A stretch of 64,000 bases of DNA from Escherichia phage vB_EcoM_PTE-Eco09: sequence record PQ306574.1. The stretch is one strand, 5' to 3'. Below, piece by piece: positions 18,049 through 52,773 of this stretch (its first letter is position 1; every line of letters begins with the position of its first letter). The notes beneath the pieces were generated by a model. That model worked only from the letters and a program-made list of their open reading frames with translations. It was not told the DNA's origin and did no database searches. The position numbers were made by a program, and so were the translations under genes.

Positions 18049-19848
18049 TCACCCAAGATCAATACGGCTACCATCAATTTTAACTGTACCAGATGCAATA
18101 TCTTTAACGCTTGCACCACAATTACGGGACCAGTCACCATTAACCTGATCTGATTTAGTGCCATTGACTGTCATATTAAAATTACCCTCAACGGTTAAAT
18201 CATAGTTACCTTTAATTGTTTCGGTAGTGTTACCATCGATCATTAATTCAGCATTACCCTTGACGTTAGCCGTCAAATTAGCGTCAAGCTGTGCGATAAC
18301 ATCACCAACAACATGCATGTTAGCAGCACCTTCAACGGTCTGATTAACATTGCCACGAATAAATTCAGTGACGTTACCATCAACGGTTTGCATCACATTA
18401 CCCATATAATAAACTTGCGCGTCACCTTCAACAACAACTTGCAAATTACCCTTGACGTTTACTTTCCGGCCTTGTTTAACGATCAGATAATCATCACCTT
18501 CAATCTTTTCTACCCTCGTTCCGTCCGGTCTGGTTTCTTCAAATGTACCAGAAGGATGTTTACGATGATATCGCTCATGAGAAGGAGTATCATCAATCTC
18601 GATAATATGACCGCTCTCTGACTCGTACACATGGTTATATGGATACCTTGCAGAATACGAACTCTTAGGCTCTTTAAACATGATTCGTGTGTCTTGTGGG
18701 GTAAACGGTGCTTCTGGGTCTTCTTCTGCTCTCTGCGTCTTATAGGCAGCAATACGGGCATTTCTCAAACGTGCTCGCGGATCATCCGAAATTGATTCCT
18801 CTTTCTTTGGAGCAATTACGCCATATGATTCTAAGTTACCAGTTAAAATAATTTTAGAAACACGGCTGGAGCGTCCTGGAGTTTGGTTAGCCCATACCGA
18901 TTGACGTAATCCATCATAGGCTTGTTTCCATTCTTCCGCTAACATCGCAGCAAGACTATTCTTAAATTTACCCAATCCTCCAACACCCATTTGAAACGCC
19001 ATATTTTCTAATGCCATACGACGTGAGGCATTACATTTATTATAGACAGGTGCAATTCGTGGATGTTTGCGCATATCACGACGAGTCTTTTCTATATCGT
19101 CGGCAAATACTTTACTAACTTCTTCGGCGGTAAGTCTTCCGTTTGTAACTTCACGCCCTACCAGCTTAGAAAGTTCATTATTGATAATACCAAGATCACT
19201 GGTTTTCTTATAAATGATCAAATGCCCGATGCCTATTGTCGGATATCCTTCTGAATCAAGATACCATTTCTCGCGATATCCCTCATCGCCCCGCAGCATT
19301 TTTTCTATTGTAAAATCAGGATTATCATCAACCGGAATTTGGTCTAATGGCTCGTCGTCTGGATTTACTGCAACTCCAGTGTTTTCATCTCTAATATAGA
19401 CACTATCAGGTTTTGTTGTTTGTCCGGTTTCTGGGTTAATACCGCCACGAGCAAGAATATTAACATCATTACCAATATAACGAGGATATGCACCAGAAGG
19501 GTCACAAAAACCCTCTGTAGTGAGTGGTTTCTCTGTATATTGTCCGGCAATAGTACCCAGAATAACGCAGTTTAAATAACGTTCATCTAAAGCCAAACCA
19601 AATACCATTGAACCTTCAACAATACCAGTAGGGCTTTGACCTATACCGGAGATCGCCGCGCTTGTAATATCTTGTACTGGCGTAATCCATAATAGATCTT
19701 CGGTTGGAAGACCTTGAATGTCACCGTGTGCGGATAGCGAGGGATGTATACCATGAATCCTAACCTGAACACGCCCCAGCATTAATGGGTCTTCCCTGTT
19801 TTCTACAATTCCGGTAAACCATTTAACGGAGTTATTAAACATTAGCAT
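18049..19848 (-). CDS. 5: Baseplate central spike with lysozyme domain (T4 gp5-like)
   Basis: 599 aa; central lysozyme-like segment (DSEGYPTIGIGHLI) and C-terminal beta-helix repeats (VxGN..). Confidence 0.9.
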   Translation of the reverse strand: MLMFNNSVKWFTGIVENREDPLMLGRVQVRIHGIHPSLSAHGDIQGLPTEDLLWITPVQDITSAAISGIGQSPTGIVEGSMVFGLALDERYLNCVILGTIAGQYTEKPLTTEGFCDPSGAYPRYIGNDVNILARGGINPETGQTTKPDSVYIRDENTGVAVNPDDEPLDQIPVDDNPDFTIEKMLRGDEGYREKWYLDSEGYPTIGIGHLIIYKKTSDLGIINNELSKLVGREVTNGRLTAEEVSKVFADDIEKTRRDMRKHPRIAPVYNKCNASRRMALENMAFQMGVGGLGKFKNSLAAMLAEEWKQAYDGLRQSVWANQTPGRSSRVSKIILTGNLESYGVIAPKKEESISDDPRARLRNARIAAYKTQRAEEDPEAPFTPQDTRIMFKEPKSSYSARYPYNHVYESESGHIIEIDDTPSHERYHRKHPSGTFEETRPDGTRVEKIEGDDYLIVKQGRKVNVKGNLQVVVEGDAQVYYMGNVMQTVDGNVTEFIRGNVNQTVEGAANMHVVGDVIAQLDANLTANVKGNAELMIDGNTTETIKGNYDLTVEGNFNMTVNGTKSDQVNGDWSRNCGASVKDIASGTVKIDGSRIDLG

Positions 19849-26889: not shown

Positions 26890-27084
26890 ATGGAATTGGA
26901 TATGGTTAAAGCAAAATTTATGGGTAAGGATAAGAGCGGTAAAACATTTGTTATTAATAGAACATTGTTTCGCTCTGACCTTAAGTGGGTAACACAACAA
27001 TTTGCGGAAGTCAACGAGGCAGTTGTGACATGCTTCGTTGATGATAAAAAAGTTTTTGAAATTGATCGTCGTGGGGGTGTCTAA
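26890..27084 (+). CDS. Hypothetical protein (64 aa)
   Basis: ATG with AAGGTGA RBS. Confidence 0.5.
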   Translation: MELDMVKAKFMGKDKSGKTFVINRTLFRSDLKWVTQQFAEVNEAVVTCFVDDKKVFEIDRRGGV

Positions 27085-27281
27085 TGATCACTAAACTGTT
27101 TAGCAATACTTTGTTTCTGATTGCATTTGTTTTCTTTCTGTGTCTGATGATCGGTGTTGTTACAGTAGGTAGCTATTCCGGTGTTACCTTAGATGATTTT
27201 TGCCAACTTGTTTTAGTCTCGTTTATACCTAGTATTCTGCTCGCTTTATGTGGTGCTTTCAGATGGCTCTGTGATCTATGA
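27084..27281 (+). CDS. Small membrane protein (65 aa)
   Basis: Hydrophobic N-terminal stretch, GGGGGTG RBS. Confidence 0.5.
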   Translation: MITKLFSNTLFLIAFVFFLCLMIGVVTVGSYSGVTLDDFCQLVLVSFIPSILLALCGAFRWLCDL

Positions 27282-27384
27282 ATGAACAGGAACGAATGAT
27301 GTTGATAGGTGGACCGGAGTTCACTAAATTTGATGCAATTCTTATTGCGTTGGGTTTTCTTATGATCTGTTGTATGGTGGCGCT

Positions 27385-27609
27385 ATGAGTAGCATAAAAT
27401 ATTTTGCTTTCTTGTGTTTTATGATGTTCTTTACATTCTTAGCATGTGTTTTCTTTACATGGCTTGCTCATGTTGATAATGCAACCGGACCGTTTTACTT
27501 CTTCTGTGTGTTGTCTGTGTTGACTGGTGCTCTTGTTACGTGGATGATTCGAGATTGTTACGTAATGTATAAGTTTGAAAAGACTCGACCGAAATGGGGC
27601 AAACGATGA
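27385..27609 (+). CDS. Small membrane protein (74 aa)
   Basis: ATG with GGTGG RBS (the track start at 27370 is TTG); two hydrophobic segments. Confidence 0.45.
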   Translation: MSSIKYFAFLCFMMFFTFLACVFFTWLAHVDNATGPFYFFCVLSVLTGALVTWMIRDCYVMYKFEKTRPKWGKR

Positions 27610-27788
27610 AATTATTTGCGTGGCTAATTATTTTAAATGTAATTGTTAAGACCGTTCTCGCTGGTTTACTGATGATACATAGCACGAAACCAGAAGAAGC
27701 ATTAACGTATTTTGTTGCTTATGTGCTGGGATTCTTGCTTACTGCGTGGATGTGTGATGAATATCGAAGAATTGAGGTAAAACCATGA
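27606..27788 (+). CDS. Small membrane protein (60 aa)
   Basis: ATGA start/stop overlap with the upstream ORF; hydrophobic. Confidence 0.45.
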   Translation: MKLFAWLIILNVIVKTVLAGLLMIHSTKPEEALTYFVAYVLGFLLTAWMCDEYRRIEVKP

Positions 27789-28003
27789 AAATGACTTTTT
27801 ATATCTTAGCAAGTATCATGCTTGTGATCTCTTCTGCACTATTTGCATTTCTTACCGTTTGGGGGATCTGTACTGATGCGAAGCCGTGGGATATCGTAGA
27901 AAATACGGTTATGTTCATTATCAGTGTCATGTGTCTTTTTGATGCGTTTAACTCTATCAAGGAAGAAGATCAAAAACGTCGCGAGAGAAAGCGATATAAA
28001 TAA
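27785..28003 (+). CDS. Small membrane protein (72 aa)
   Basis: GAGGTAA RBS; hydrophobic core and basic C-terminus (KRRERKRYK). Confidence 0.5.
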   Translation: MKMTFYILASIMLVISSALFAFLTVWGICTDAKPWDIVENTVMFIISVMCLFDAFNSIKEEDQKRRERKRYK

Positions 28004-28152
28004 TAGTGAACTAAAGACAGCGCGGTTAGAATGATTTGGACGTCACCTAGCCGCATTTATTACAGCGTATGGGGTGACCCGGTACGCTAAAGCATTCACT
28101 TGCTAGGCCGCTAGCAGGTTGGAGACAAGGAAGATTCGCTACCTTCCCTATA
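28004..28152 (+). ncRNA. Candidate structured non-coding RNA
   Basis: About 150 nt with no ORF on either strand and several inverted repeats (GTCACC/GGTGAC, CTAGGCCGCTAG, GGAAG..CTTCC), ending at the terminator at 28153. Confidence 0.25.
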
Positions 28153-28178
28153 AGCCACTCTTCGGAGTGGCTTTTTTA
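28153..28178 (+). terminator. Rho-independent terminator
   Basis: AGCCACTCTTCGGAGTGGCT hairpin followed by TTTTTT. Confidence 0.65.
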
Positions 28179-28204
28179 TTGCCTAAAATTTTTTAAAAAA
28201 GTTG

Positions 28205-28233
28205 TTGACACCAGATCACGCCTATAGCATAAT
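28205..28233 (+). promoter_or_regulatory. Early promoter module (TTGACA-N17-CATAAT), conserved-leader type
   Basis: GTTGTTGACA..TAGCATAAT..ATCGAAACGAAACAC leader. Confidence 0.65.
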
Positions 28234-28279
28234 ACACCCATCGAAACGAAACACACTTTCTTAAACGGAGAATCAAATT

Positions 28280-28465
28280 ATGGCACGTCGCATCACTAAA
28301 GCACTGAAAGCAGTAAGCAAAGAAAACGTAGTAGCTATTCTGGTCATCTGGGGTTATAACGAAGAATCCGCTAAACAGAAAGTTGAAGCAGGGTTTGAAC
28401 TGGCGGTAAAAGCAATGCCGAATGATGACTCTGTAGGACTGGCAAACTATATTGCATATTTCTGA
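28280..28465 (+). CDS. Hypothetical protein (61 aa)
   Basis: ATG after the promoter and ACGGAGAA RBS. Confidence 0.5.
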   Translation: MARRITKALKAVSKENVVAILVIWGYNEESAKQKVEAGFELAVKAMPNDDSVGLANYIAYF

Positions 28466-28473
28466 TAAAAGTG

Positions 28474-28502
28474 TTGACAGGGGAGGATAACTCCCCTACA
28501 AT
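28474..28502 (+). promoter_or_regulatory. Early promoter module with spacer stem-loop
   Basis: TTGACA-N17-TACAAT; spacer palindrome GGGGAGGATAACTCCCC. Confidence 0.55.
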
Positions 28503-28531
28503 ACAACCATCAACGAAACGGGAGGACCAAA

Positions 28532-28759
28532 ATGATTAACTTTAAAGACGCAGCAAAAGAAATTATCGACTTTGAGCGTGAAATGTTTGAGATGGAACCG
28601 CAGATGGGTAAAATGGAACTGGCTAACCAGATCTGGGCTACTAGACTGAATCCGGCTGATCGCTTAGAGATCATGAACATTGTAGGAGCAAGCGACATGA
28701 AAGGTAGTGCTATGGCTAAACTCCGTAAATGCACCGCATACATTGCAGAACAACTTTAA
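28532..28759 (+). CDS. Hypothetical protein (75 aa)
   Basis: ATG with GGGAGGA RBS. Confidence 0.5.
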   Translation: MINFKDAAKEIIDFEREMFEMEPQMGKMELANQIWATRLNPADRLEIMNIVGASDMKGSAMAKLRKCTAYIAEQL

Positions 28760-28771
28760 TTGGAGGGTGTT

Positions 28772-28960
28772 ATGGGAGAGAAACCATTAACGCAACTGAG
28801 AGTACGCTATTATCAGATCTTAGCATTGCTTAACGCTGAGGGCGTAGATCCATCGGACCGCGAGGCTGTAAAAGCGTGCTTATCTGATACGGTACAGCCA
28901 AAACAAAATTATGCTTGCTATATGTACTTTCAAAATCGTTTGAATAGTGTTAAGTGTTGA
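28772..28960 (+). CDS. Hypothetical protein (62 aa)
   Basis: ATG with GGAGGG RBS (the track start is TTG). Confidence 0.45.
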   Translation: MGEKPLTQLRVRYYQILALLNAEGVDPSDREAVKACLSDTVQPKQNYACYMYFQNRLNSVKC

Positions 28961-28969
28961 GGTGATACT

Positions 28970-29158
28970 ATGGAAGACCAAATTGAACAATTACGCGAAT
29001 CCGCTAAAGAGCATGGTATGAGCGAAGCGTTTGTAGAATGGTTTATCTCTAAAAAGGTTGATTCCTGCGGGTGCTTTAACTTCCTTACTATGTCCATTAT
29101 GTGGGAAGGTTGGAAAGGTGCTGTAGAAACTGCTCTAGAAATTATGAAAAAAGACTAA
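28970..29158 (+). CDS. Hypothetical protein (62 aa)
   Basis: ATG with GAGGTGA RBS. Confidence 0.5.
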   Translation: MEDQIEQLRESAKEHGMSEAFVEWFISKKVDSCGCFNFLTMSIMWEGWKGAVETALEIMKKD

Positions 29159-29166
29159 AAAAGTTG

Positions 29167-29195
29167 TTGACACGCGAGAGGGTGTATAGCATAAT
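29167..29195 (+). promoter_or_regulatory. Early promoter module (TTGACA-N17-CATAAT), conserved-leader type
   Basis: AGTTGTTGACA..TAGCATAAT..ATCGAAACGAAACAC. Confidence 0.65.
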
Positions 29196-29237
29196 ACACC
29201 CATCGAAACGAAACACGAACTACTAAGGAGTATCAAA

Positions 29238-29564
29238 ATGAAACCAGTATCTGTTAAAGTTATCTTCTCTGAATCTTCTGTATTCGCTAACGCAAACGAA
29301 GTATTCCACTTCGAAGACTTCGAGCGTAAAGCACAGGACGCGGCAGCAAAAGCCTATGAAAGCGAATATGACAAAACTCAAATCGAGGTTACTTTCGAAA
29401 ACGGCACTACTTACGCTTGCCGCCTTGACCTGGGTGATCGTCTGTCTGGCTTCCGTCACCATGTAGAGAAGACAATCGCTTTCTCTAAAACCGAAAAAGG
29501 AAAACACTACTTTTCTGTTTTCGGTACTGAAAATCTGGATTTCTTGAAAACTGTTTCTTTCTAA
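29238..29564 (+). CDS. Hypothetical protein (108 aa)
   Basis: ATG after the promoter and AAGGAG RBS. Confidence 0.55.
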   Translation: MKPVSVKVIFSESSVFANANEVFHFEDFERKAQDAAAKAYESEYDKTQIEVTFENGTTYACRLDLGDRLSGFRHHVEKTIAFSKTEKGKHYFSVFGTENLDFLKTVSF

Positions 29565-29572
29565 GGTATATT

Positions 29573-29755
29573 ATGAAAAAGATTAATTGGTTAGCGAACA
29601 TAGGCGCGGTCTGCGCCTTTAACATCCTCGGATGGATAATGTTACATTTTGATGAGCGAGTTTCAAAATGTGAGGGTGTATTGATTCTCGGATCTGCTAG
29701 CATATTCATTATGCTGTATGCAATTGCTGTTGACTTAAGCCGCGATGGTTGTTAA
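29573..29755 (+). CDS. Small membrane protein (60 aa)
   Basis: TAAGGT RBS; two hydrophobic segments. Confidence 0.5.
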   Translation: MKKINWLANIGAVCAFNILGWIMLHFDERVSKCEGVLILGSASIFIMLYAIAVDLSRDGC

Positions 29756-29808
29756 TATGACGCTCAAGAATATGTTTTTTTAACTTCGTAGGTGCTTCCA
29801 TTCTTTCA

Positions 29809-29955
29809 ATGCTATATCTTGTGATTGTATGGATGGGCGACTATGAATTAACTAACGATGAAAATTTGACAGTGTTTACTGTCTTGACGATGATCATTTA
29901 CACTGTCTTTCTTGTCTTGGATTTTATTGTGTTTCTTTACAAAACGGTGACTTGA
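29809..29955 (+). CDS. Possible small hydrophobic protein (48 aa)
   Basis: ATG ORF filling the gap between neighbours; weak RBS. Confidence 0.3.
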   Translation: MLYLVIVWMGDYELTNDENLTVFTVLTMIIYTVFLVLDFIVFLYKTVT

Positions 29956-30152
29956 TGACGATTAGTAAAAATGATATTGGTTTTGTTGCGGGTATCGCTA
30001 GCGTCTTTACTGTTGTTATTTTGCTAATGCTTTTACCCGGTGTATTCTCTGACCAGATTGAATTGTATGTAGCTTTTATCTGTTGCATTTATACTTGGTT
30101 TGCAATGTTTGTGATTAGTCTAATTATGCAATTCGTCGTTAACAAATTTTAG
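29955..30152 (+). CDS. Small membrane protein (65 aa)
   Basis: ATG with ACGGTGA RBS (the track start is TTG). Confidence 0.45.
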   Translation: MTISKNDIGFVAGIASVFTVVILLMLLPGVFSDQIELYVAFICCIYTWFAMFVISLIMQFVVNKF

Positions 30153-30173
30153 ATTTAATGTGAGGATTATATT

Positions 30174-30494
30174 ATGAGCAAACTGTTTGAAACTCCGCGT
30201 GAAATTCTAATTGATAAGCTGAAAGAACGTGGTTTTAAAATCAAAGATGCAACCAAATACAGCCGAATTGATGAAATTAAGTTGCATTCTCTTGATGAAC
30301 TGGTAGAATATGTTGCGGCGGTTGCTGATCCGCAGTTTGATGTGATTGTAGGTGACGTTGAATATCTCGATAATGTATATTCATTCTTCACTTATGGTAA
30401 AATTGTGTCTGTGAAAATTTCATTCTGTGAAAATGTGGAGGTGCTTGCTAGTGAACCAGAAAAACCAACTGACAACGGTCCTTCGGCAGCGTAA
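30174..30494 (+). CDS. Hypothetical protein (106 aa)
   Basis: ATG with TGAGGATTATATT leader. Confidence 0.55.
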   Translation: MSKLFETPREILIDKLKERGFKIKDATKYSRIDEIKLHSLDELVEYVAAVADPQFDVIVGDVEYLDNVYSFFTYGKIVSVKISFCENVEVLASEPEKPTDNGPSAA

Positions 30495-30765
30495 CAAGGA
30501 AGACCGTCTGATTTATGCGCTGGCGGTTATCCTTGAAAAAGAATTACCGGATCTTGAGGTAGTTTTTACTGACCGACCAGTAGGCCAACGTTACGGCGGA
30601 TATGATAGCCTAGTTTATCCATCATATAGCCTTGAAATGTGGGTAGAAGATTTTAAAAACTTGGCCGATACATCTAAACCGCTTTATTTGTGGGATGTTG
30701 AGTATAATTGCGATCCTAACTGGCCTGGCATTAATGTTTATGCGTCTATGACTTTAAAGGTGTGA
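30451..30765 (+). CDS. Hypothetical protein (about 104 aa)
   Basis: GTG start with GGAGGTG RBS; overlaps the upstream ORF by 44 nt; start uncertain. Confidence 0.4.
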   Translation: MNQKNQLTTVLRQRNKEDRLIYALAVILEKELPDLEVVFTDRPVGQRYGGYDSLVYPSYSLEMWVEDFKNLADTSKPLYLWDVEYNCDPNWPGINVYASMTLKV

Positions 30766-30767
30766 TA

Positions 30768-30926
30768 ATGGTTGAACAAATGTTAACTTCAATGGTAATG
30801 GCTTTCTGTATGGTTGTTGTTATGATTGCAATGATCCCTAAAGAGAGAATGAATCTTCTTGTAGCTGTCTGTATGGGCGTTGTTTGTGGATGGTTTGGGA
30901 TCGCGCTAGAAGAAGCTCTGCGTTGA
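30768..30926 (+). CDS. Small membrane protein (52 aa)
   Basis: ATG with AAAGGTG RBS; MVEQMLTSMVMAFCMVVVMIAMIP..; not in the ORF track. Confidence 0.45.
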   Translation: MVEQMLTSMVMAFCMVVVMIAMIPKERMNLLVAVCMGVVCGWFGIALEEALR

Positions 30927-30934
30927 TTAACAAA

Positions 30935-30970
30935 GCGGGTAGTACATTCCACTACCCGCACTAATTTATC
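30935..30970 (+). terminator. Hairpin (possible terminator or RNA stability element)
   Basis: GCGGGTAGT-ACATTCC-ACTACCCGC 9-bp stem; weak U-run. Confidence 0.35.
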
Positions 30971-30987
30971 TCGCTGGAGGGCTTTCT

Positions 30988-31176
30988 ATGGCGTTTTGTC
31001 TATGGTTGCTTATAGTATGCTTTGTAATGGGTTTATGCTTCTATACTGGCGTATTCTGTTTTGTCGCCTGGATAGACGGCGGTTTCTCTAATATCATTTT
31101 GCTTGCCGGATCAATTGCCTCGTTTCTGTTGATATGGCTTTTTTCTTATTTGTTTGGTGAATGGGATTTATTATGA
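30988..31176 (+). CDS. Small membrane protein (62 aa)
   Basis: TGGAGGG RBS; hydrophobic. Confidence 0.5.
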   Translation: MAFCLWLLIVCFVMGLCFYTGVFCFVAWIDGGFSNIILLAGSIASFLLIWLFSYLFGEWDLL

Positions 31177-31352
31177 ACAAATATATGTTTTGGGCGACCC
31201 TTGCCTATGTTGTGATTGCGGTAGTATGGGGATTCTGTGTTATTGTCGCTTCTCTGATCTGGTGGGAATCACTTGGCGCGGGTTGTCTTATTAGCGGCGC
31301 ATCATGTCTTATCACTGGCGTGATTGTTGGTTTTCTTGTGTCGGAGGATTGA
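31173..31352 (+). CDS. Small membrane protein (59 aa)
   Basis: ATGA overlap with the upstream ORF; hydrophobic. Confidence 0.45.
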   Translation: MNKYMFWATLAYVVIAVVWGFCVIVASLIWWESLGAGCLISGASCLITGVIVGFLVSED

Positions 31353-31354
31353 CA

Positions 31355-31570
31355 ATGGTTTTCTTCGGTCTTATTATAATGGTGCTTAATGTCATTTGTG
31401 GCGTTGCTATGTTAGCTATGGCCTTTACTGTTCCTATGTCTGTTGACAGCGCCGCGTCAGTAGGTGTGTTGGGAATTGTAAACCTGTTTACTGCCATAGC
31501 ATGTTGGATCACCGGACGCGATGAGGTAATGTATTACTTTTATAAACGTAAACAGAGAAAAGGAAAATAA
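31355..31570 (+). CDS. Small membrane protein (71 aa)
   Basis: ATG with GGAGGA RBS; hydrophobic. Confidence 0.5.
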   Translation: MVFFGLIIMVLNVICGVAMLAMAFTVPMSVDSAASVGVLGIVNLFTAIACWITGRDEVMYYFYKRKQRKGK

Positions 31571-31571
31571 T

Positions 31572-31763
31572 ATGAAATTTGCATTTGGTTTTACCGTGAT
31601 GTTGATTATTGCTCTGAGTATGTGTACCGGAATGCTTGTCTTTGGCTTAACAAACGGATTTAGCATTTATAATAATCCGTGGGTTGATTGTGGAATGGTT
31701 GTCGTTAATGCTATCCTTATTGGTGCTAATACAAGAACTCTATGCAGGATCGCCGGAATCTAA
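31572..31763 (+). CDS. Small membrane protein (63 aa)
   Basis: ATG; hydrophobic; directly upstream of the endolysin. Confidence 0.5.
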   Translation: MKFAFGFTVMLIIALSMCTGMLVFGLTNGFSIYNNPWVDCGMVVVNAILIGANTRTLCRIAGI

Positions 31764-31791
31764 ATATTATCACTCACAAAGGGGGTGAATA

Positions 31792-32181
31792 ATGTTTAAA
31801 TTATCTCAAAGAAGCAAAGATCGGCTTGTTGGTGTACATCCAGACCTGGTAAAAGTCGTTCATCGTGCGTTAGAACTGACTCCGGTCGATTTTGGTATTA
31901 CGGAAGGTGTGCGTAGTCTAGAAACGCAAAAGAAATATGTTGCGGAAGGTAAATCTAAGACTATGAAATCTCGTCATCTTCACGGTTTCGCGGTTGATGT
32001 TGTAGCGTATCCGAAAGATAAAGATACATGGAACATGAAATATTACCGCATGATCGCTGATGCGTTTAAACAAGCTGGTCGAGAATTGGGTGTTCCTGTT
32101 ATCTGCGGTGTTGATTGGGTTACTTTTAAAGACGGACCGCATATGGAACTCGATAAAAAGGTATATCCAGACCCGGTATAA
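31792..32181 (+). CDS. Endolysin, L-alanyl-D-glutamate peptidase (M15 family, T5 Lys-like)
   Basis: RALELTPVDFGITEGVRS, SRHLHGFAVD, AFKQAGRELGV, GPHMELD resemble T5 endolysin as recalled; H-x6-D and H zinc ligands. Confidence 0.8.
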   Translation: MFKLSQRSKDRLVGVHPDLVKVVHRALELTPVDFGITEGVRSLETQKKYVAEGKSKTMKSRHLHGFAVDVVAYPKDKDTWNMKYYRMIADAFKQAGRELGVPVICGVDWVTFKDGPHMELDKKVYPDPV

Positions 32182-32190
32182 CTAAAATAA

Positions 32191-32213
32191 AGCCAGCTTA
32201 GTCTCTGGCTTTG
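32191..32213 (+). terminator. Hairpin after the endolysin (weak terminator)
   Basis: AGCCAG-CTTAGTCT-CTGGCT stem; short U-run. Confidence 0.35.
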
Positions 32214-32226
32214 TGAGGATTATAAA

Positions 32227-32802
32227 ATGGCTTTTAAATATTGGGATGAATCCCTACAAAACGAGATAAAACTTAGATATGCTCATATAGAGGGTATCTT
32301 ATATTATAGAGTCGATAGTAAAGCTATCAAAGGACGACCATTAGGGAGTAGATATAAACACGGCGATTTAGTTAAAGTCAGAACAAATAAAGATGGTCAT
32401 CTTAGATTTTGGCATAGTAGAGATGACGGTCTTCCTAGAGTTCATCTATTCGTGCATAGGGTTGTTTGGTTTCTAGAACATGGGACGCAAGTTAGATTAA
32501 TTGATCATATTGACGGTAATCCTGCGAATAACAATCCTCCAAATCTTAGGGAGGCAACCGACGCGCAAAATCAACATAATAGAAAGAAGAAGTCTAAAAA
32601 GTTTTCTAGTGTGTATAAGGGTGTTAGTAAGTGTAACAGGAAGGATTTGCGTAAGAAATGGAGAGCTAGTATAATGGTCAACCTACAAAGACATGTTCTT
32701 GGACAATATGACACAGAAATCGAAGCTGCAATCGCTTATGATAATGCAGCTAGGAAATTTTATGGAGAATATGCTCTATTGAATTTCCCAGATCCAAAAT
32801 GA
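32227..32802 (+). CDS. HNH homing endonuclease with AP2 DNA-binding domain
   Basis: HIDGNPANNNPPNLREATDAQNQHN HNH motif plus AP2-like YKGVS..WRASI..YDTEIEAAIAYDNAARKFYGE. Confidence 0.75.
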   Translation: MAFKYWDESLQNEIKLRYAHIEGILYYRVDSKAIKGRPLGSRYKHGDLVKVRTNKDGHLRFWHSRDDGLPRVHLFVHRVVWFLEHGTQVRLIDHIDGNPANNNPPNLREATDAQNQHNRKKKSKKFSSVYKGVSKCNRKDLRKKWRASIMVNLQRHVLGQYDTEIEAAIAYDNAARKFYGEYALLNFPDPK

Positions 32803-32864: not shown

Positions 32865-33350
32865 ATGAATATTGATGTAAAATTAGAAAGTAAAGATTTG
32901 ATTTATGCTGCGTGTGTTTCTGCCGTAGATGGCATCATAGAACGCCGTAAGCGACGCAATTTTGCTGATGACCTAGATTCCATTGTCTCAATCAATTTAG
33001 GCCGTCAGACAGGGCATACAGACGCTACAATCAAGTTATATGACCATTATACGAGAAAAGGCTATAGTGTCTTTATCGTTTCAACGACGCGGGAACATGC
33101 CAAAACGATCCGAGATCGCGGTCGCGGTGAAAATGTAAATATTTCAAATGTAGATTGTACGTCGATCCGAACTTTCCTGAATCCGATCACATGGCGAGGT
33201 CGTAGTCTTGACAAAACAATTTTTATCCTAGATACTACCATGCGCGGATTTACTGACAGCGTATTGCAGTTTTTAGAATTGAATCGACTTAGTGTTGGGA
33301 TGGGTAATGTAGAAGACCAACCTATTTTCATTGGCTTAGGTATCAACTAA
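32865..33350 (+). CDS. Hypothetical protein (161 aa)
   Basis: ATG with CTGGAGA RBS (the track start is TTG). Confidence 0.5.
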   Translation: MNIDVKLESKDLIYAACVSAVDGIIERRKRRNFADDLDSIVSINLGRQTGHTDATIKLYDHYTRKGYSVFIVSTTREHAKTIRDRGRGENVNISNVDCTSIRTFLNPITWRGRSLDKTIFILDTTMRGFTDSVLQFLELNRLSVGMGNVEDQPIFIGLGIN

Positions 33351-33475
33351 TGAAAAATAAAGATAGCGTAGCTCGTCGATTTCGTGCTACAATTAAAAAG
33401 AATCGTAAAGTCCAACCTGATAAACTCTATGGTGTTTTGGTTGGTAAAATTAATGACGAACGTCCTGATCTATAA
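33350..33475 (+). CDS. Possible small basic protein (41 aa)
   Basis: ATG overlapping the upstream stop; MKNKDSVARRFRATIKKNRK..; speculative. Confidence 0.25.
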   Translation: MKNKDSVARRFRATIKKNRKVQPDKLYGVLVGKINDERPDL

Positions 33476-33485
33476 GAGGTGATTT

Positions 33486-33902
33486 ATGGAATTTAAAGCA
33501 ATTCAAATCATGAAAGGTGAGCATAAAGGTACTATTATCGGTGGACATTTCGCGCCTATGATTCTGGTATCCGAACCGAAAGCCCTGATCGGCGCTAAAG
33601 TAATTGTTAGTAAAACTTTCGCAGAAGACCATGTGATCACCGCAGAAGACGTCGATTCGCTGGCACTGCACACAACTAGCTTCCGTCCGGTGATTGTAGA
33701 TAATGGTGCTCCGGTTGTCGAAGGTGGTCAGCATTTGAATGTTAACGTATTGTTACGAGAAATGTTGCTGGACGCTGTTGAACATCCTGAGAAGTACCCG
33801 CAGCTTACAATTCGCGTTTCTGGTTACGCAGTGCGCTTCAATAGTCTGACTCCAGACCAGCAGCGTGACGTTATCGCTCGTACCTTTACCGAATCTCTCT
33901 AA
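33486..33902 (+). CDS. grcA: Autonomous glycyl radical cofactor (GrcA/YfiD-like)
   Basis: C-terminal [49 protein letters not shown] is near-identical to E. coli GrcA as recalled. Confidence 0.85.
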
Positions 33903-33912
33903 TTTTTCATCA

Positions 33913-33946
33913 AGCCAATCCGAAAAGGGTTGGCTTTTTCTTTTTA
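33913..33946 (+). terminator. Rho-independent terminator
   Basis: AGCCAATCCGAAAAGGGTTGGCT hairpin followed by TTTTTCTTTTT. Confidence 0.65.
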
Positions 33947-38779: not shown

Positions 38780-38819
38780 CCCCAGATTATAAATATAACT
38801 GAATATTTTTAATCTGGGG
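38780..38819 (+). promoter_or_regulatory. Long hairpin carrying a TATAAATA late-promoter motif in its loop
   Basis: CCCCAGATT..(22-nt loop containing TATAAATA at 38788-38795)..AATCTGGGG, about 33 nt upstream of the ATG at 38829. Confidence 0.35.
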
Positions 38820-38828
38820 GAATGACTT

Positions 38829-39131
38829 ATGTCATTTATTCGTAAAACTCTAACAGCGGCAATATGCTTGACTGCGGTCGGAAGTGTCAGTGCTGATCAA
38901 TATGATCCAACTGGTGACTTTACTGATTATTTCGACGGTGCAATGATAGTATATGTAAACAAAATATCTCCTTCCATTGAAACCAGCCAGAAATTTCATG
39001 CCCATATTATGAAGATGTATGCTCGTAGTAAATGTATGGATTCTAAGCAGTGTTTTATTATGGGGGAATATGCCGCACAACAGTTTGTTATGTTGCATAA
39101 TATGGAGAATCGAGAACATGAAATTCAGTGA
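38829..39131 (+). CDS. Secreted protein of unknown function (100 aa)
   Basis: Signal peptide MSFIRKTLTAAICLTAVGSVSA; GGGGGAA RBS. Confidence 0.5.
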   Translation: MSFIRKTLTAAICLTAVGSVSADQYDPTGDFTDYFDGAMIVYVNKISPSIETSQKFHAHIMKMYARSKCMDSKQCFIMGEYAAQQFVMLHNMENREHEIQ

Positions 39132-50910: not shown

Positions 50911-52773
50911 ATGGAAAAACTAATCAAAGACATTACAGAGATCGCAACGGGTAAAGAAAACGAAGTAAGCAAAGAGAACGCGAACAAAGACGCGCGAACA
51001 TTCCCGACACGTCGAGATCTGATTGCTGGCGCTGTGTCTAAACAGATTGCTAAAACCGTGTTACCTGAGCACATCTATAAAGCGCATGTAGACGGTGATA
51101 TTCATTATCATGATATGGATTATGCACCAGCTATGCCGTTTACTAACTGCTGTCTTGTTAATCTCAAAGACATGTTAGAGAATGGTTTTAAATTGGGTAG
51201 CGCACAAATCGAAAGTCCGAAATCAATCGGCGTTGCTTGTGCTGTAACCGCTCAAATTATCGCACAGGTGGCAAGTCATCAATATGGCGGGACCACAATT
51301 GCAAACATCGATCAGGTTTTAGCGCCATACGTTGAGAAAACATATCATAAACACCTTGCTGATGCCGAAACCTACGGAATCAAAGCTGATACTCTCTATG
51401 CACAAGAGAAGACAGAAAAAGAAACTTTAGACGGGTATCAAGCGTTGGAATATGAAATCAACACTTTGTTCTCCACCAACGGTCAAACGCCTTTTGTGAC
51501 TTTAACCTTTGGTATGGGTACTAGCTGGGAAGAAAAACTGATTCAGAAAGCGATCCTGAACGTTCGAACTAAAGGTTTAGGTAAAGATGGTATCACTCCG
51601 GTGTTTCCTAAGCTGGTGATGTTCTTAGAAGAAGGATTAAACCTTAAACCGGAAGATCCGAACTACGACATTAAGCAACTTGCATTGGAATGTTCGAGTA
51701 AGCGTCTTTACCCTGATTATATCTCTGCGAAGAATAACCGTAGCATCACTGGATCTAGTGTTCCGGTTAGCCCGATGGGTTGTCGTAGCTTCCTGGGTGT
51801 GTGGCATAATGAGAAAGGCGAAGAAGTATTAGACGGACGTAATAACTTAGGTGTTGTGACTCTGAATCTTCCGCGTATTGCCCTTATTGCCGCGCGTCGT
51901 GCTGGTAAAGCGTCTGTAATGCGCAGAATTGAGCTATTCGAACAAGAGCTAGCTAATCGTATGCCTATTTGTTTTGATGCGCTCATGAGTCGCGTAGACG
52001 CTTTAAAAGGCGCTAAAGCCAATGTTGCTCCTGTACTATATACCGAAGGTGCATTTTTCCGTATTCATCAAAACGATGAAATTTTGGAAGTGTTGAAAGA
52101 TGGTCGCGCTAGTATCTCTCTTGGATATATTGGTTTACATGAGGTATTGAGCGTCCTGTTTGATGTTCATCCGTTTGATTCGGAAGATGCGCAGCGATAC
52201 GGTAAACATATTCTTAAGATCTTGCGTCATTATACTGAAAAATGGAAGGACGAAACCGGACTTGGGTTTAGTCTTTACGGTACTCCAGCCGAGAGCCTTT
52301 GCTATCGATTTAATCGACTGGACCGAGAGCAATTTGGTATTGTTAAGGGTGCTACCGATAAAGACTGGTACACCAACTCATTCCACCTTGACGTAGACCG
52401 GAAAGTCACTCCATTTGAGAAAATTGACTTTGAGAAAGATTATCACTGGCTGGCGTCCGGTGGCATGATCTCTTATGTTGAGTTCCCAGACATGAAAAAC
52501 AACCTGAAAGGTCTTGAAACTGTAGTAGACTATGCAATGGATAAATTGCACTACTTCGGTGTTAATACTCCTTCTGATGTATGTCATGTATGCGGATCTA
52601 CTAAGGAAATGAGAGCGACCGAGTCTGGTTTTGTTTGTCCTGATTGCGGTAATGACAATCTGGAAAAGATGAATGTTATCCGTCGCGTTAGTGGATATCT
52701 TGGATCTGTTGATCTGCGTCCATTCAACCACGGGAAACACTCCGAGATGGTAAACCGCGTTAAGCACATGTAA
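50911..52773 (+). CDS. nrdD: Anaerobic ribonucleoside-triphosphate reductase
   Basis: 620 aa; long stretches resemble T4 NrdD (NANKDARTFPTRRDL, PFTNCCLVNLKDMLENGFKLGSAQIE, C-terminal glycyl-radical RRVSGYLG); no intron. Confidence 0.9.
   Translation: MEKLIKDITEIATGKENEVSKENANKDARTFPTRRDLIAGAVSKQIAKTVLPEHIYKAHVDGDIHYHDMDYAPAMPFTNCCLVNLKDMLENGFKLGSAQIESPKSIGVACAVTAQIIAQVASHQYGGTTIANIDQVLAPYVEKTYHKHLADAETYGIKADTLYAQEKTEKETLDGYQALEYEINTLFSTNGQTPFVTLTFGMGTSWEEKLIQKAILNVRTKGLGKDGITPVFPKLVMFLEEGLNLKPEDPNYDIKQLALECSSKRLYPDYISAKNNRSITGSSVPVSPMGCRSFLGVWHNEKGEEVLDGRNNLGVVTLNLPRIALIAARRAGKASVMRRIELFEQELANRMPICFDALMSRVDALKGAKANVAPVLYTEGAFFRIHQNDEILEVLKDGRASISLGYIGLHEVLSVLFDVHPFDSEDAQRYGKHILKILRHYTEKWKDETGLGFSLYGTPAESLCYRFNRLDREQFGIVKGATDKDWYTNSFHLDVDRKVTPFEKIDFEKDYHWLASGGMISYVEFPDMKNNLKGLETVVDYAMDKLHYFGVNTPSDVCHVCGSTKEMRATESGFVCPDCGNDNLEKMNVIRRVSGYLGSVDLRPFNHGKHSEMVNRVKHM

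Follow-up and report, generated by a model that had tools for sequence, protein, structure and literature searches.

The small genes upstream of the endolysin gene belong to an ordinary, already annotated stretch of a Krischvirus genome that holds no new lysis module, since the T4-type holin, antiholin, and spanins are kept elsewhere. Its best explanation, which we regard as probable, is a single early unit in a hyperplastic region, composed of accessory membrane ORFans and a known endolysin, with lysis proceeding on the T4 scheme. The window (the whole stretch of DNA that was analyzed, 64,000 nt) comes from a Krischvirus (RB49/Phi1/JSE-like), a T4-type coliphage, and is 95%–99% identical to 58 published genomes; all features described below lie on its plus strand. 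Both the transmembrane (TM) predictions for the small ORFs (RB49, 2006) and the RB49-type endolysin are already known.

The probable early unit and its ten small genes

The initial annotation, made from the sequence alone, had described closely packed short ORFs leading into the gene of an M15 peptidase, and this arrangement was confirmed at the stated coordinates. However, ten ORFs were found between 29573 and 31763 instead of the nine claimed, and these correspond to RB49 ORF112–ORF103. In order, they encode 60, 48, 65/66, 106, 104/112, 52/54, 62, 59/63, 71/88, and 63 aa. The tight overlaps were also as described, with overlaps of 1–4 nt, gaps of 1–28 nt, and a single overlap of 44 nt. The hydrophobic character ascribed to the cluster holds for eight of the ten ORFs, but not for the 106-aa and 104-aa ORFs, which are soluble and acidic. 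Topology prediction, which had been suggested as a check, gave one or two Kyte-Doolittle TM segments for each of the eight (mostly two-TM hairpins), in agreement with the published predictions for RB49 ORF103–112. TM segments occur in 14 of the 58 small early-strand ORFs of the window, and 12 of these 14 fall within 27084–31763. The clustering of TM ORFs is beyond chance (eight in the run of ten, hypergeometric P = 5.6e-5), and small TM ORFs characterize the whole 27.1–31.8 kb region, beyond the immediate surroundings of the endolysin.

The ten small ORFs and the endolysin gene lie as a whole block behind one conserved, predicted early promoter of the sigma-70 type (29167–29195; TTGACA-17-CATAAT, A-rich upstream), which was recognized by consensus scan. 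Its hexamers are unchanged across 11 genomes, with a variable spacer. The GEC-3S annotation places a promoter at the counterpart position, and the RB49 counterpart is the predicted early promoter Pe:57746, downstream of which the first early promoter lies only at 52389 (PMC1524935, Additional file 3). No consensus late promoter was found for the small ORFs in the window scan or among the RB49 predictions. The first gene of the unit (29238–29564) encodes a 108-aa soluble LPD25-domain protein (RB49 ORF113; Pfam PF18840, E = 3.2e-14; dN/dS 0.08–0.11). The last genes are a vs.8 homolog (32865–33350), a 41-aa ORF (33350–33475), and vs.6 (33486–33902), which encodes a GrcA-like glycyl-radical protein (Pfam Gly_radical, E = 1.5e-16); the names vs.8 and vs.6 are taken from Phi1. 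An intrinsic terminator found by terminator scan at 33912–33936 marks the unit end, and GEC-3S has one annotated at the matching place, after vs.6. We propose that one early unit would extend from this promoter to this terminator within the accessory-gene (hyperplastic) region, in the order LPD25 protein, ten genus-specific ORFans (RB49 ORF112–103), endolysin, vs.8, and vs.6. Sigma-70-like early promoters and ORFan cassettes have been documented in the hyperplastic regions of RB49 and Phi1 (PMC2839356).

A second cluster, of four small two-TM ORFs, was observed upstream at 27084–28003 (RB49 ORF122–118 region; TM predictions for RB49 ORF118–122 are published), and two of its four ORFs carry basic C-terminal tails. 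The run of ten begins with a 60-aa two-TM protein (29573–29755, RB49 ORF112; Kyte-Doolittle; phrog_16425, function unknown; dN/dS 0.25), for which a TM prediction has been published as RB49 ORF112c. The following ORF111 homolog (29757–29955), a 65-aa two-TM protein when intact, is frameshifted in the window by a T7 run (29775–29781) that leads to a premature TAA (29781–29783). The 48-aa ORF counted by the initial annotation (29809–29955) is therefore present only as a remnant of this broken ORF, without a good Shine-Dalgarno sequence and with a phrog_21837 match restricted to profile positions 18–65. In an 11-genome alignment, ORF111 is in frame with a T6 run or a TTTTTC variant (Phi1, GEC-3S, RB49) and out of frame with T5 (W115, TB34, JK32) and T7 (window); the divergent relatives L016 and L018 carry the full-length 65-aa form. 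ORF110 (29955–30152) encodes a 65-aa two-TM protein, and its start overlaps the preceding stop (TGATG). In JSE, Makalu_002, and SFHK24, one divergent two-TM ORF of 64–66 aa stands in place of ORF111 and ORF110.

The 106-aa acidic protein (30174–30494, RB49 ORF109) has no TM segment (phrog_16584; dN/dS 0.05–0.14), and its single-sequence AF2 model was poor (pLDDT 58). ORF108 (30451–30765), which overlaps ORF109 by the 44 nt, starts with GTG after GGAGG and encodes a 104-aa soluble protein (dN/dS 0.00–0.15); its phrog_16246 match begins at residue 9 of the longer reading. The AF2 model of ORF108 (pLDDT 68) matched a 106-aa JSE protein in BFVD (E = 1e-4), and ORF108 is possibly a distant paralog of ORF109. 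The 52-aa two-TM protein ORF107 (30768–30926; Kyte-Doolittle; dN/dS 0.41–0.43) is separated from ORF106 by a G+C-rich stem-loop (30935–30959; −16 kcal/mol, z = −5.7). The stem (CGGGTAG/CTACCCG) is the same in 11 genomes, whereas the loop takes three forms, and no T-run was found behind it. The next two ORFs, linked by an ATGA overlap, encode two-TM proteins of 62 aa (30988–31176, RB49 ORF106; Kyte-Doolittle; dN/dS 0.17–0.28) and 59 aa (31173–31352, RB49 ORF105; dN/dS 0.20–0.24); the phrog_16151 match of the latter begins at residue 5 of its longer reading. In JK32, a 264-bp tandem duplication disrupts ORF106. ORF104 (31355–31570) encodes a 71-aa two-TM protein from the ATG at 31355 behind GGAGG, and its phrog_15232 match begins at residue 18 of the 88-aa reading. 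ORF103 (31572–31763; dN/dS 0.25–0.29), directly upstream of the endolysin gene, encodes a 63-aa hydrophobic protein. The homologs of both ORF104 and ORF103 are confined to Krischvirus-like contigs.

Intact copies of all ten ORFs were found in ten published genomes of Krischvirus and in four divergent relatives from metagenomes, except for the ORF111 frameshifts, the replacement of ORF111 and ORF110 in the three phages named above, and the ORF106 duplication. Values of dN/dS were 0.00–0.58 overall: 0.16–0.58 among the nine ORFs scored (all but ORF111), with 0.00–0.15 for the two soluble ones. These data bear on an alternative reading, in which the region would evolve fast, much like intergenic DNA, and the small ORFs in it would be annotation artefacts or filler without a function. 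The ORFs are very short, no homologs were found outside Krischvirus-like phages, some dN/dS values reach 0.4–0.6, ORF111 is frameshifted in the window and at least three other isolates, and two ORFs are swapped out in JSE-type phages, all of which would suit filler. However, apart from ORF111 (and ORF106 in JK32), the frames have stayed open across 14 genomes whose amino-acid divergence reaches ~30%, synonymous changes are in excess solely in the annotated frame, Shine-Dalgarno sequences and coupling overlaps accompany the ORFs, and the allele that replaces ORF110 likewise encodes a two-TM protein of equal size. We consider filler highly improbable. Purifying selection acts on the small ORFs, which are real genes; eight of them encode predicted membrane proteins, and a conserved early promoter lies ahead of them.

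The endolysin gene, its leader, and its altered 3′ end

The run leads into the gene (31792–32181) of a zinc M15C L-alanyl-D-glutamate peptidase (RB49 ORF102, EndoRB49 type; Pfam Peptidase_M15_4, 33.9 bits vs a cutoff of 25). As the initial annotation had stated, this enzyme is an M15 peptidase and not an e-type lysozyme; in the genome, an e-type lysozyme fold occurs only in the tail-lysozyme domain of gp5. The likeness to T5 endolysin claimed at the same time stood at the level of the M15 family, but not as a close one, because identity is ~38% and the enzyme is nearer to RB49-type chains. Matches in the PDB were 23ri (E = 2e-77), 8q2g (E = 3e-74), ChiX 5opz (E = 2e-32), and T5 2mxz (E = 3e-20), and residues 1–103 are near-identical to the solved RB49-type chains (8q2g, 23ri). 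The RB49 ortholog, EndoRB49, is a characterized enzyme with solved structures, and the residues H62, D69, H117, and W109 described for it (PMC10487532) are kept. No TM, signal, or SAR segment was found in the endolysin.

A homing-endonuclease cassette (32101–32802) has replaced the 3′ end of the endolysin gene, which shares 98.4% identity with RB49 ahead of codon 104 and 61.7% after it. The cassette comprises the variant endolysin 3′ end (32101–32181), a stem-loop (32189–32212), and a gene for a 191-aa HNH-AP2 endonuclease (32227–32802; Pfam HNH_3, E = 2.6e-10), in which the AP2 match is sub-threshold (25.2 bits vs a cutoff of 33.3). Homology to RB49 resumes at 32787 with the old endolysin 3′ end (PDPK*). 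All four aligned genomes with the endonuclease gene had the variant 3′ end, and it was missing from the five aligned genomes without that gene in which the endolysin 3′ end was covered. The endonuclease gene was found in 13 records, and an endolysin at least 99% identical was also found in 13.

In a predicted hairpin (31757–31802), which folds at −12.9 kcal/mol in the window, the AUG of the endolysin gene and its Shine-Dalgarno sequence are both base-paired. The hairpin is stronger in L016 and L018 (−18.4 kcal/mol, z = −3.25), and its 5′ arm holds TCTAAATA (31759–31766), which has one mismatch to the late promoter consensus. The endolysin could thus be under translational control of the T4 e type, in which the hairpin would silence early read-through and TCTAAATA, as a weak late promoter, would free the ribosome-binding site (RBS). 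With such control, endolysin function would no longer be tied to the small ORFs. The proposal does not conflict with the best explanation and would give it a timing mechanism. The hairpin sequence is invariant in 11 genomes, the M15 endolysin genes of Morganella phage MP1 and a Klebsiella phage likewise have RBS-pairing hairpins ahead of them, beside (N)ATAAATA-like motifs, and CTAAATA is the late promoter consensus in the T4-like phage Aeh1 (PMC1524935). On the other hand, the −12 position of TCTAAATA is C, in contrast to the (T/A)ATAAATA of RB49 late promoters, and the site is absent from the 17 predicted RB49 late promoters; no consensus late promoter was found in front of the endolysin gene in the window scan or the RB49 predictions. 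The hairpin shows no covariation, because its sequence is invariant. Since the RBS pairedness ranks only 9th of 98 window genes (~1.3 sd above the mean), the RBS-sequestering hairpin is a lead and not a finding, and we regard e-type control as possible but rather unlikely.

Lysis genes and the possible role of the small membrane proteins

The initial annotation had offered the cluster as a possible non-canonical lysis module and proposed searching for a T4 t-holin homolog. This search succeeded: Phi1 has a bona fide T4-type holin t (Pfam Phage_holin_T, E = 4.5e-61), a full-length Phi1-type t gene (at least 95% identity) is present in 58 of 58 Krischvirus records, and the spanins pseT.3/pseT.2 are annotated in Phi1. 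The holin and spanins were thus seen in 95%–100% identical relatives, as the window does not span that part of the genome. The window itself contains the rI antiholin gene (38829–39131; Pfam PF24205 Antiholin, E = 1.6e-23), with an exact late promoter TATAAATA (38788–38795, perfect consensus match) at the place matching the predicted RB49 late promoter Pl:48756. In Morganella phage MP1, the orthologous endolysin gene adjoins nudE (T4 e.1) and its neighbors are soluble, as they are in a Slopekvirus-type Klebsiella phage. Because the upstream flank of endolysin orthologs in a siphovirus and in other T4-like genera showed no hydrophobic small ORFs, the non-canonical module is unsupported, and the T4-type lysis genes, the early promoter, and the lack of a small ORF matching a holin family above threshold (Pfam; profile search) also speak against it.

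A narrower version, in which foremost ORF104 or ORF103 would act as a second holin, pinholin, or antiholin together with, or tuning, holin T, was weighed separately; the small membrane genes would perhaps have been acquired together with the foreign M15 endolysin. ORF104 is by shape the most holin-like small ORF, as its two TM segments, short acidic loop, and strongly basic C-terminal tail (YKRKQRKGK) suggest the N-in/C-in hairpin of a generic class II holin. It is also the best-conserved hydrophobic ORF among Krischvirus isolates (8 synonymous vs 3 non-synonymous changes), it lies with ORF103 immediately 5′ of the endolysin gene also in divergent relatives, and the concentration of eight TM genes just before the endolysin is non-random. 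Its Pfam holin matches (Phage_holin_3_5, E = 0.029; Phage_holin_3_6, E = 0.35), however, are far under the gathering scores (15 vs 27 bits) and typical of TM composition, and a profile search of 1.84 billion representatives returned only its own cluster. Moreover, the upstream cluster, which is distant from the endolysin gene, also contains two-TM proteins with basic tails; outside Krischvirus, the closest homologs of the endolysin sit among unrelated neighbors; an early promoter would be dangerous for a true holin; and a complete T/RI/spanin set is present. An accessory lysis role is therefore improbable.

The other suggestion of the initial annotation, membrane-targeted early proteins for immunity or host takeover, fared better: its early-membrane part fits the early promoter, the two-TM hairpins, and the purifying selection, as well as the confinement to one genus and the replacement of cassettes between strains, and a reading as early membrane proteins with an accessory role appears to accord with the data. 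We found no match of the small ORFs to Imm or other families (Pfam, NCBIfam, PADLOC, annotated PHROGs) and no expression, localization, or phenotype data on them in the literature. The proteins would be made in the first minutes of infection, insert into the inner membrane, and serve as individually dispensable accessory factors acting on host or phage envelope functions. Our preferred guess for their role, by analogy with T4 Imm, is that they bring about superinfection exclusion or block host functions or defenses based at the membrane; we do not expect them to export the endolysin. Lysis would follow the T4 scheme, with the endolysin accumulating in the cytoplasm, where it would stay because it has no signal sequence, until the late-expressed holin T, timed by the RI antiholin, opens the membrane and the pseT.3/pseT.2 spanins break the outer membrane. 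The M15 endolysin would occupy roughly the T4 gene e locus, and its position beside the small ORFs probably reflects where e was exchanged for a foreign gene and does not indicate a functional module.

Comparison with known systems

Of the T4 lysis system (T, RI, PseT.3/PseT.2, and E), Krischviruses retain t and rI together with both spanin genes. By annotation, their endolysin gene stands between the vs genes and 57B, which is also the place of e on the T4 map. In contrast to T4, a peptidase with no homology to muramidase E takes its place, and no consensus late promoter was found ahead of the endolysin gene. The window endolysin shares with EndoRB49 and EndoT5 the M15C fold family, the catalytic residues H62, D69, H117, and D108-W109, and a single soluble domain without export signal. 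Unlike EndoRB49, it ends in 26 variant residues (ICGVDWVTF...MELDKKVYPDPV) that co-travel with the downstream homing endonuclease, and it is closer to Serratia ChiX and enterobacterial siphovirus endolysins than to EndoT5. As with the free-standing mob/seg-type HNH homing endonucleases of T4-like phages, the cassette places an HNH_3-domain ORF beside a conserved gene in only some isolates, and the flanking gene contains a divergent tract with sharp boundaries. In contrast to that type, it supplies its own replacement for the last 26 endolysin codons, and its endonuclease ORF terminates in a remnant of the original endolysin 3′ end.

The hyperplastic ORFan cassettes of RB49 and Phi1 with PeSL (promoter-early stem-loop) elements (Arbiol et al. 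2010, PMC2839356) resemble the window unit in their sigma-70-like early promoters, genus-specific ORFans, G+C-rich stem-loops, and insertion/replacement differences among close relatives. The window unit differs in its length (~4.7 kb, >15 genes) under one promoter only, and no promoter adjoins its internal stem-loop at 30935–30959. Class II holins and pinholins such as S21 of phage 21 are like ORF104 in size (~70 aa), two TM segments, a likely N-in/C-in topology, a charged C-terminus, and closeness to the endolysin gene. ORF104 nevertheless has neither homology to these holins nor a dual-start motif, and its promoter is early, not late; unlike in the S21 setting, the endolysin is not a SAR endolysin and a T holin is already present. 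T4 Imm and Sp are small early membrane proteins that mediate superinfection exclusion and are non-essential, encoded in variable regions. The Krischvirus ORFs are alike in being small, early, and apparently non-essential, with one or two TM segments and a location in a variable region. They differ in having no sequence similarity to Imm or Sp and no Pfam Imm match, and, where T4 has single genes, Krischvirus has eight to twelve of them side by side.

Gene content and conservation of the small-ORF cluster

The 4.5 kb around the small-ORF cluster is 95–99% identical to 58 published genomes, all of the genus Krischvirus (RB49, Phi1, JSE, GEC-3S, and others), and a search for distant DNA with the cluster (blastn) returned the same 58 Krischvirus records and no others. 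Within the window, composition and strand skew switch near 20.4 kb, where late structural genes on the minus strand give way to early genes on the plus strand. Gene names were taken from Phi1; in RB49, the flagged ORFs are known as ORF112 to ORF103 and the endolysin gene as ORF102. The initial annotation counted nine small ORFs leading into the endolysin. This run is present, but at 29573–31763 it comprises ten plus-strand ORFs of 60, 48 (a remnant of ORF111), 65, 106, 104, 52, 62, 59, 71, and 63 aa, with starts chosen by the presence of a Shine-Dalgarno sequence and by agreement with PHROG profile boundaries and published annotations. The tight packing was borne out by TGATG and ATGA overlaps, gaps of 1–28 nt, and one 44-nt overlap. 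As also claimed, most of the ORFs encode transmembrane (TM) segments: eight of the ten are strongly hydrophobic (GRAVY 0.86–1.76), with one or two Kyte-Doolittle TM segments. When the suggested topology prediction was carried out with a 17-residue window, nearly all of the hydrophobic ORFs appeared as two-TM hairpins, the central loops of which are mostly neutral or acidic. The middle ORFs of 106 and 104 aa are soluble and acidic. The initial observation was largely right in substance, with the ORFs miscounted.

On the early strand of the window, 98 non-overlapping ORFs were called, 58 of them with a length of ≤120 aa. TM segments were predicted in 14 of these 58 short ORFs, and 12 of the 14 lie within 4.7 kb (27084–31763); the presence of eight TM ORFs in the run of ten corresponds to a hypergeometric P of 5.6e-5. 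TM predictions for RB49 ORF103, 104, 106, 107, 110, 111, and 112 can already be found in Nolan et al. 2006 (PMC1524935, Additional file 2), which also predicts TM segments in RB49 ORF118–122 and 124, just upstream. A second cluster, made up of four small two-TM ORFs (65, 79, 64, and 72 aa), is located upstream at 27084–28003; in two of the four, the C-terminal tail is strongly basic. This second cluster is set apart from the endolysin by several genes for soluble proteins and by two further early promoters. Because two-TM ORFs with basic tails occur there, away from the endolysin, the "holin-like" shape is common in the region independently of the endolysin.

When ten Krischvirus genomes were aligned with the window, none of the ORFs showed a stop codon that arose by base substitution, and synonymous changes are in excess in the annotated frame only. 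The frame disruptions that do occur are all indel-based, namely poly-T frameshifts in ORF111 and, in JK32, a 264-bp duplication that runs through ORF106. Between the LPD25 gene and vs.6, the genes follow the identical order in divergent metagenomic contigs of 170–175 kb, which were found via ORF104 homologs. In comparison with these metagenomic relatives, dN/dS was 0.16–0.58 for the hydrophobic ORFs, 0.00–0.15 for the two soluble ORFs, and 0.05–0.15 for the endolysin, which indicates that the membrane ORFs evolve faster. The open frames, the in-frame synonymous excess, and the low dN/dS together identify the small ORFs as real genes under purifying selection, and it is highly improbable that they are not genes at all.

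The small ORFs are restricted to the genus. In PHROGs, each of them is a separate genus-level PHROG of unknown function, and protein homologs of ORF104 and ORF103 were found only in Krischvirus-like contigs. A search of 1.84 billion representative proteins with a profile of the ORF104 family returned only its own cluster. None of the ten small ORFs had an above-threshold match in Pfam, NCBIfam, or PADLOC, and the sub-threshold matches were TM-driven only. Functional, transcriptomic, or proteomic data on the small ORFs were not found in the literature.

The soluble 106-aa and 104-aa ORFs (30174–30765) are the pair that shares the 44-nt overlap; their mutual BLASTP match is weak (E = 0.16), and they may be distant paralogs. 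Single-sequence AlphaFold2 models of the two proteins were of low confidence (pLDDT of 58 and 68, respectively). With the model of the 104-aa protein, Foldseek retrieved a 106-aa JSE protein in BFVD (E = 1e-4), and since all matches were uncharacterised phage proteins, no function was given to this ORF.

Strain variation and transcription of the unit

The homolog of ORF111 (a 65-aa two-TM protein; 29757–29955) contains a T7 run at 29775–29781, which shifts the frame and leads to a premature TAA at 29781–29783. ORF111 is in frame where this run is T6 or TTTTTC (Phi1, GEC-3S, and RB49), and the T5 run of W115, TB34, and JK32 is also out of frame. The poly-T frameshift could be either a real, phase-variation-like decay or a homopolymer sequencing error. 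In JSE, Makalu_002, and SFHK24, a single divergent two-TM ORF of 64–66 aa stands in place of ORF111 and ORF110 (window 29809–30152). The divergent metagenomic relative L016 keeps a full-length ORF111 and has this divergent allele instead of ORF110, ~33% identical to the ORF110 of the window. This exchange of ORF111 and ORF110 looks like a cassette swap in which size and topology are preserved. The 264-bp tandem duplication of Shigella phage JK32 runs from the end of ORF107 into the start of ORF106 (junction at 2329–2332 of the JK32 sequence L012, corresponding to window 30840–31103). This duplication, by which ORF106 is disrupted, may be genuine or may have arisen as an artefact of assembly. 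Between ORF107 and ORF106, at 30935–30959, there is a G+C-rich stem-loop (−16 kcal/mol, z = −5.7), the stem of which is conserved, with three loop sequences among 11 genomes; a following T-run and an adjacent promoter are absent. It is possibly a remnant of a PeSL, or it may serve as an attenuator or stabilise the mRNA.

The operon opens with a gene (29238–29564) for a stand-alone 108-aa LPD25 protein (large polyvalent protein-associated domain 25), which is nearly invariant among Krischviruses. A sigma-70 consensus promoter (TTGACA-17-CATAAT, A-rich upstream) is located at 29167–29195 on the plus strand, upstream of the LPD25 gene. This early promoter is conserved: its hexamers are invariant in 11 genomes, and the spacer differs in several of them. 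The GEC-3S annotation has a promoter at the matching site and places the next terminator after vs.6 (window 33912–33936). The RB49 early promoter Pe:57746 was also predicted at the matching site, with the next early promoter at 52389 and no predicted late promoter near the endolysin (Nolan et al., PMC1524935). Only two perfect TATAAATA late-promoter motifs occur on the cluster strand of the window, and a sequence scan of this strand found none between 27995 and 38788. Given that only a sigma-70-type early promoter lies upstream, the small ORFs are predicted to be early genes, which is the wrong time for a holin. Another promoter-like site, at 31349–31377, was rejected as a chance match because it is inside coding sequence and is unsupported by RB49 or GEC-3S annotation.

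Hyperplastic regions of RB49 and Phi1 are built from sigma-70-like early promoters, G+C-rich stem-loops, and ORFan cassettes (Arbiol et al. 2010, PMC2839356). The hallmarks of such an ORFan cassette were found here, namely an early promoter, group-restricted ORFans, and insertion/replacement polymorphism between close relatives. The region is modular between strains, as seen in the replacement of ORF111 and ORF110, the duplication in ORF106 of JK32, and the presence or absence of a homing endonuclease. We consider it likely that the accessory genes here form a single early operon, situated in a hyperplastic region, within or beside which a foreign endolysin replaced e. The region is already annotated in published genomes of a well-sampled genus, its endolysin has been characterised, and the membrane character of its small ORFs was tabulated in 2006; for these reasons, it matters little in itself. 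It does raise a generic but real question, namely why one accessory region concentrates a dozen conserved two-helix mini-proteins under early control.

The endolysin, its 3′ cassette, and its leader hairpin

The product of 31792–32181 is an M15 peptidase and not an e-type lysozyme, as the initial annotation stated (PF13539, Peptidase_M15_4, 33.9 bits versus a cutoff of 25; E = 4.8e-8). Its description as "T5-type" holds at the family level, but the protein is only ~38% identical to T5-like endolysins. Residues 1–103 are identical to the PDB 23ri chain (E = 2e-77) and differ at two positions from PDB 8q2g (E = 3e-74); Serratia ChiX (E = 2e-32) and the T5 endolysin (2mxz; E = 3.4e-20) were matched as well. 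In tblastn searches, identity was 60% to Salmonella phage SP069, 56% to the T4-like Morganella phage MP1, and 47–48% to RB43 and Slopekvirus-type phages. The RB49 ortholog, EndoRB49, to which the window endolysin is 91–94% identical, has been purified and mutated, and its zinc ligands H62/H117 and conserved W109 have been described (PMC10487532); L-Ala-D-Glu cleavage was demonstrated biochemically for this ortholog (PMC8140593, PMC10487532). The His-Asp-His zinc ligands H62, D69, and H117 and the D108-W109 pair (GxDW) are all present in the window endolysin, its variant C-terminus included. The window enzyme with this C-terminal variant is, by its membership of the EndoT5/EndoRB49 family, a predicted L-Ala-D-Glu peptidase. 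A hydrophobic N-terminus is absent from the endolysin, so a holin is needed for it to reach the wall. With a T4 lysozyme query, the sole tblastn match was the gp5 tail-lysozyme domain (window 18823–19308, minus strand), which leaves no candidate for a soluble endolysin but the M15 enzyme.

In Morganella phage MP1, the M15 ortholog adjoins a nudix hydrolase gene (T4 e.1/nudE) and lies upstream of vs.6, denV, and regB, which is the position of e on the T4 map. Its upstream neighbors encode soluble proteins, and so do those of the endolysin gene in a Slopekvirus-type Klebsiella phage. In the Salmonella siphovirus SP069, the endolysin is found among small ORFs, the products of which are unrelated to any Krischvirus ORF. 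The linkage between small ORFs and endolysin is kept only in Krischvirus-like phages and is absent in MP1, the Klebsiella phage, and SP069. These unrelated neighbors indicate that the membrane ORFs did not travel with the endolysin and are unlinked to it outside the genus.

The HNH-AP2 homing-endonuclease gene at 32227–32802 travels with the divergent last 26 codons of the endolysin (cassette 32101–32802). Nucleotide identity to the RB49 endolysin is 98.4% before codon 104 and 61.7% after it; the endonuclease-free allele has the GTTGAATGGGGTGGGGATTGG region, as opposed to the variant allele in the window. The variant 3′ end was present in all four aligned endonuclease carriers and in none of the five aligned non-carriers with the 3′ end covered. 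The endonuclease gene occurs in 13 records, and an endolysin of ≥99% identity likewise in 13. Homology to endonuclease-free genomes starts again at 32787, which indicates that what is left of the original endolysin 3′ end (PDPK-stop) now closes the endonuclease ORF. The cassette carries its own replacement of the end of its target gene, and the replacement end is probably resistant to cleavage. It is a tidy example of mobile genes remodelling a host gene without destroying it.

A consensus late promoter is absent before the endolysin gene. A hairpin at 31757–31802 (−12.9 kcal/mol in the window) pairs its Shine-Dalgarno sequence and AUG. McPheeters et al., in 1986, are said to have found the early transcripts of T4 e untranslatable, with late promoters inside the hairpin. 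A comparable translational switch here is possible but doubtful. The hairpin is conserved and is stronger in divergent relatives (−18.4 kcal/mol, z = −3.25; L016 5399–5447), and within its 5′ arm lies TCTAAATA, which differs at one position from the late-promoter consensus. Upstream of the M15 gene, MP1 and the Klebsiella phage also have RBS-pairing hairpins, similarly placed beside (N)ATAAATA-like motifs (L006 3451–3518 and L007 3441–3512, the sequences of these phages), and the late consensus of phage Aeh1 is CTAAATA (PMC1524935). However, the TCTAAATA site is not among the predicted RB49 late promoters (PMC1524935), and in RBS pairedness the endolysin is no higher than 9th among 98 genes of the window. 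As this rank makes it no statistical outlier, the hairpin was kept as a lead only. Alternatively, the endolysin may simply build up from early transcripts and do no harm before holin T is triggered.

Lysis genes and the possible role of the small ORFs

Canonical lysis genes are present in these phages. In Phi1, a 98%-identical relative, gene t is next to the tail-fibre genes (Pfam Phage_holin_T, E = 4.5e-61), and the pseT.3/pseT.2 spanin pair is annotated. Each of the 58 records with the small-ORF cluster also has gene t, at full length and with at least 95% identity. The RI antiholin is encoded in the window at 38829–39131 (Pfam Antiholin, E = 1.6e-23); rI begins 33 nt downstream of a perfect TATAAATA at 38788–38795, which coincides with a predicted RB49 late promoter. 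The initial annotation had set a canonical lysis system elsewhere in the genome against its own proposal of a non-canonical lysis module. The holin, antiholin, and spanins of such a system were found, whereas e has been replaced by the M15 gene. The T4-type holin, antiholin, and spanins, the early promoter, the lack of a holin family among the small ORFs, and their lack of linkage to the endolysin outside the genus all speak against the proposed module.

It is also quite unlikely that the small ORFs include a secondary holin or antiholin, for which ORF104 and ORF103 would be the candidates. Holin shape (a TM segment with a charged C-terminal tail) is clearly seen only in ORF104, which has two TM segments and a tail with seven basic and two acidic residues, and thus the generic form of a class II holin; the tails of the other small ORFs are short or acidic. 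ORF104 also gave weak, sub-threshold matches to holin families. Nevertheless, every specific test failed, from the holin families and the BLASTP comparison with endolysin neighbors to the profile search and the early promoter. The best holin-family match of any small ORF in Pfam was Phage_holin_3_5, at 15 bits versus a gathering score of 27. BLASTP gave nothing below E = 0.1, either all-against-all among the small ORFs or against the endolysin neighbors in MP1, the Klebsiella phage, and SP069, which argues against both a paralog family and a shared holin. In the sequence prediction of holin-type late expression, the small ORFs had the early promoter only, with no perfect late motif between 27995 and 38788.

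A bolder reading, which we regard as a long shot, takes all twelve genus-specific two-TM mini-proteins between dmd and the endolysin (27084–31763) as an early inner-membrane arsenal, of which at least one, likeliest ORF104, would modulate lysis directly. ORF104 would then be a second holin- or antiholin-like partner that fits the T/RI clock to the foreign M15 enzyme, and an RBS hairpin like that of T4 e, retained through the non-orthologous gene replacement, would silence the endolysin on early transcripts.

The likelier reading of the region as an early accessory operon leaves the small ORFs as early membrane proteins, which fits their predicted topology and promoter. Their products would be inserted early into the inner membrane and would have an accessory role at the envelope. 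Our preferred guess is that, in the way of T4 Imm, they would exclude superinfecting phages or interfere with host functions or defences based in the membrane, although any specific activity would be much less probable than the operon itself. If the small ORFs are exclusion or anti-defence factors, or modifiers of the lysis clock, they would join the few small membrane proteins of phages that are understood and might bear on the therapeutic use of RB49/JSE-type phages. In the Pfam search, none of the ten matched the Imm family at E up to 1. A T4 Imm-type protein is small, early, and located in the inner membrane; for the Krischvirus ORFs, TM hairpins and an early promoter are predicted.
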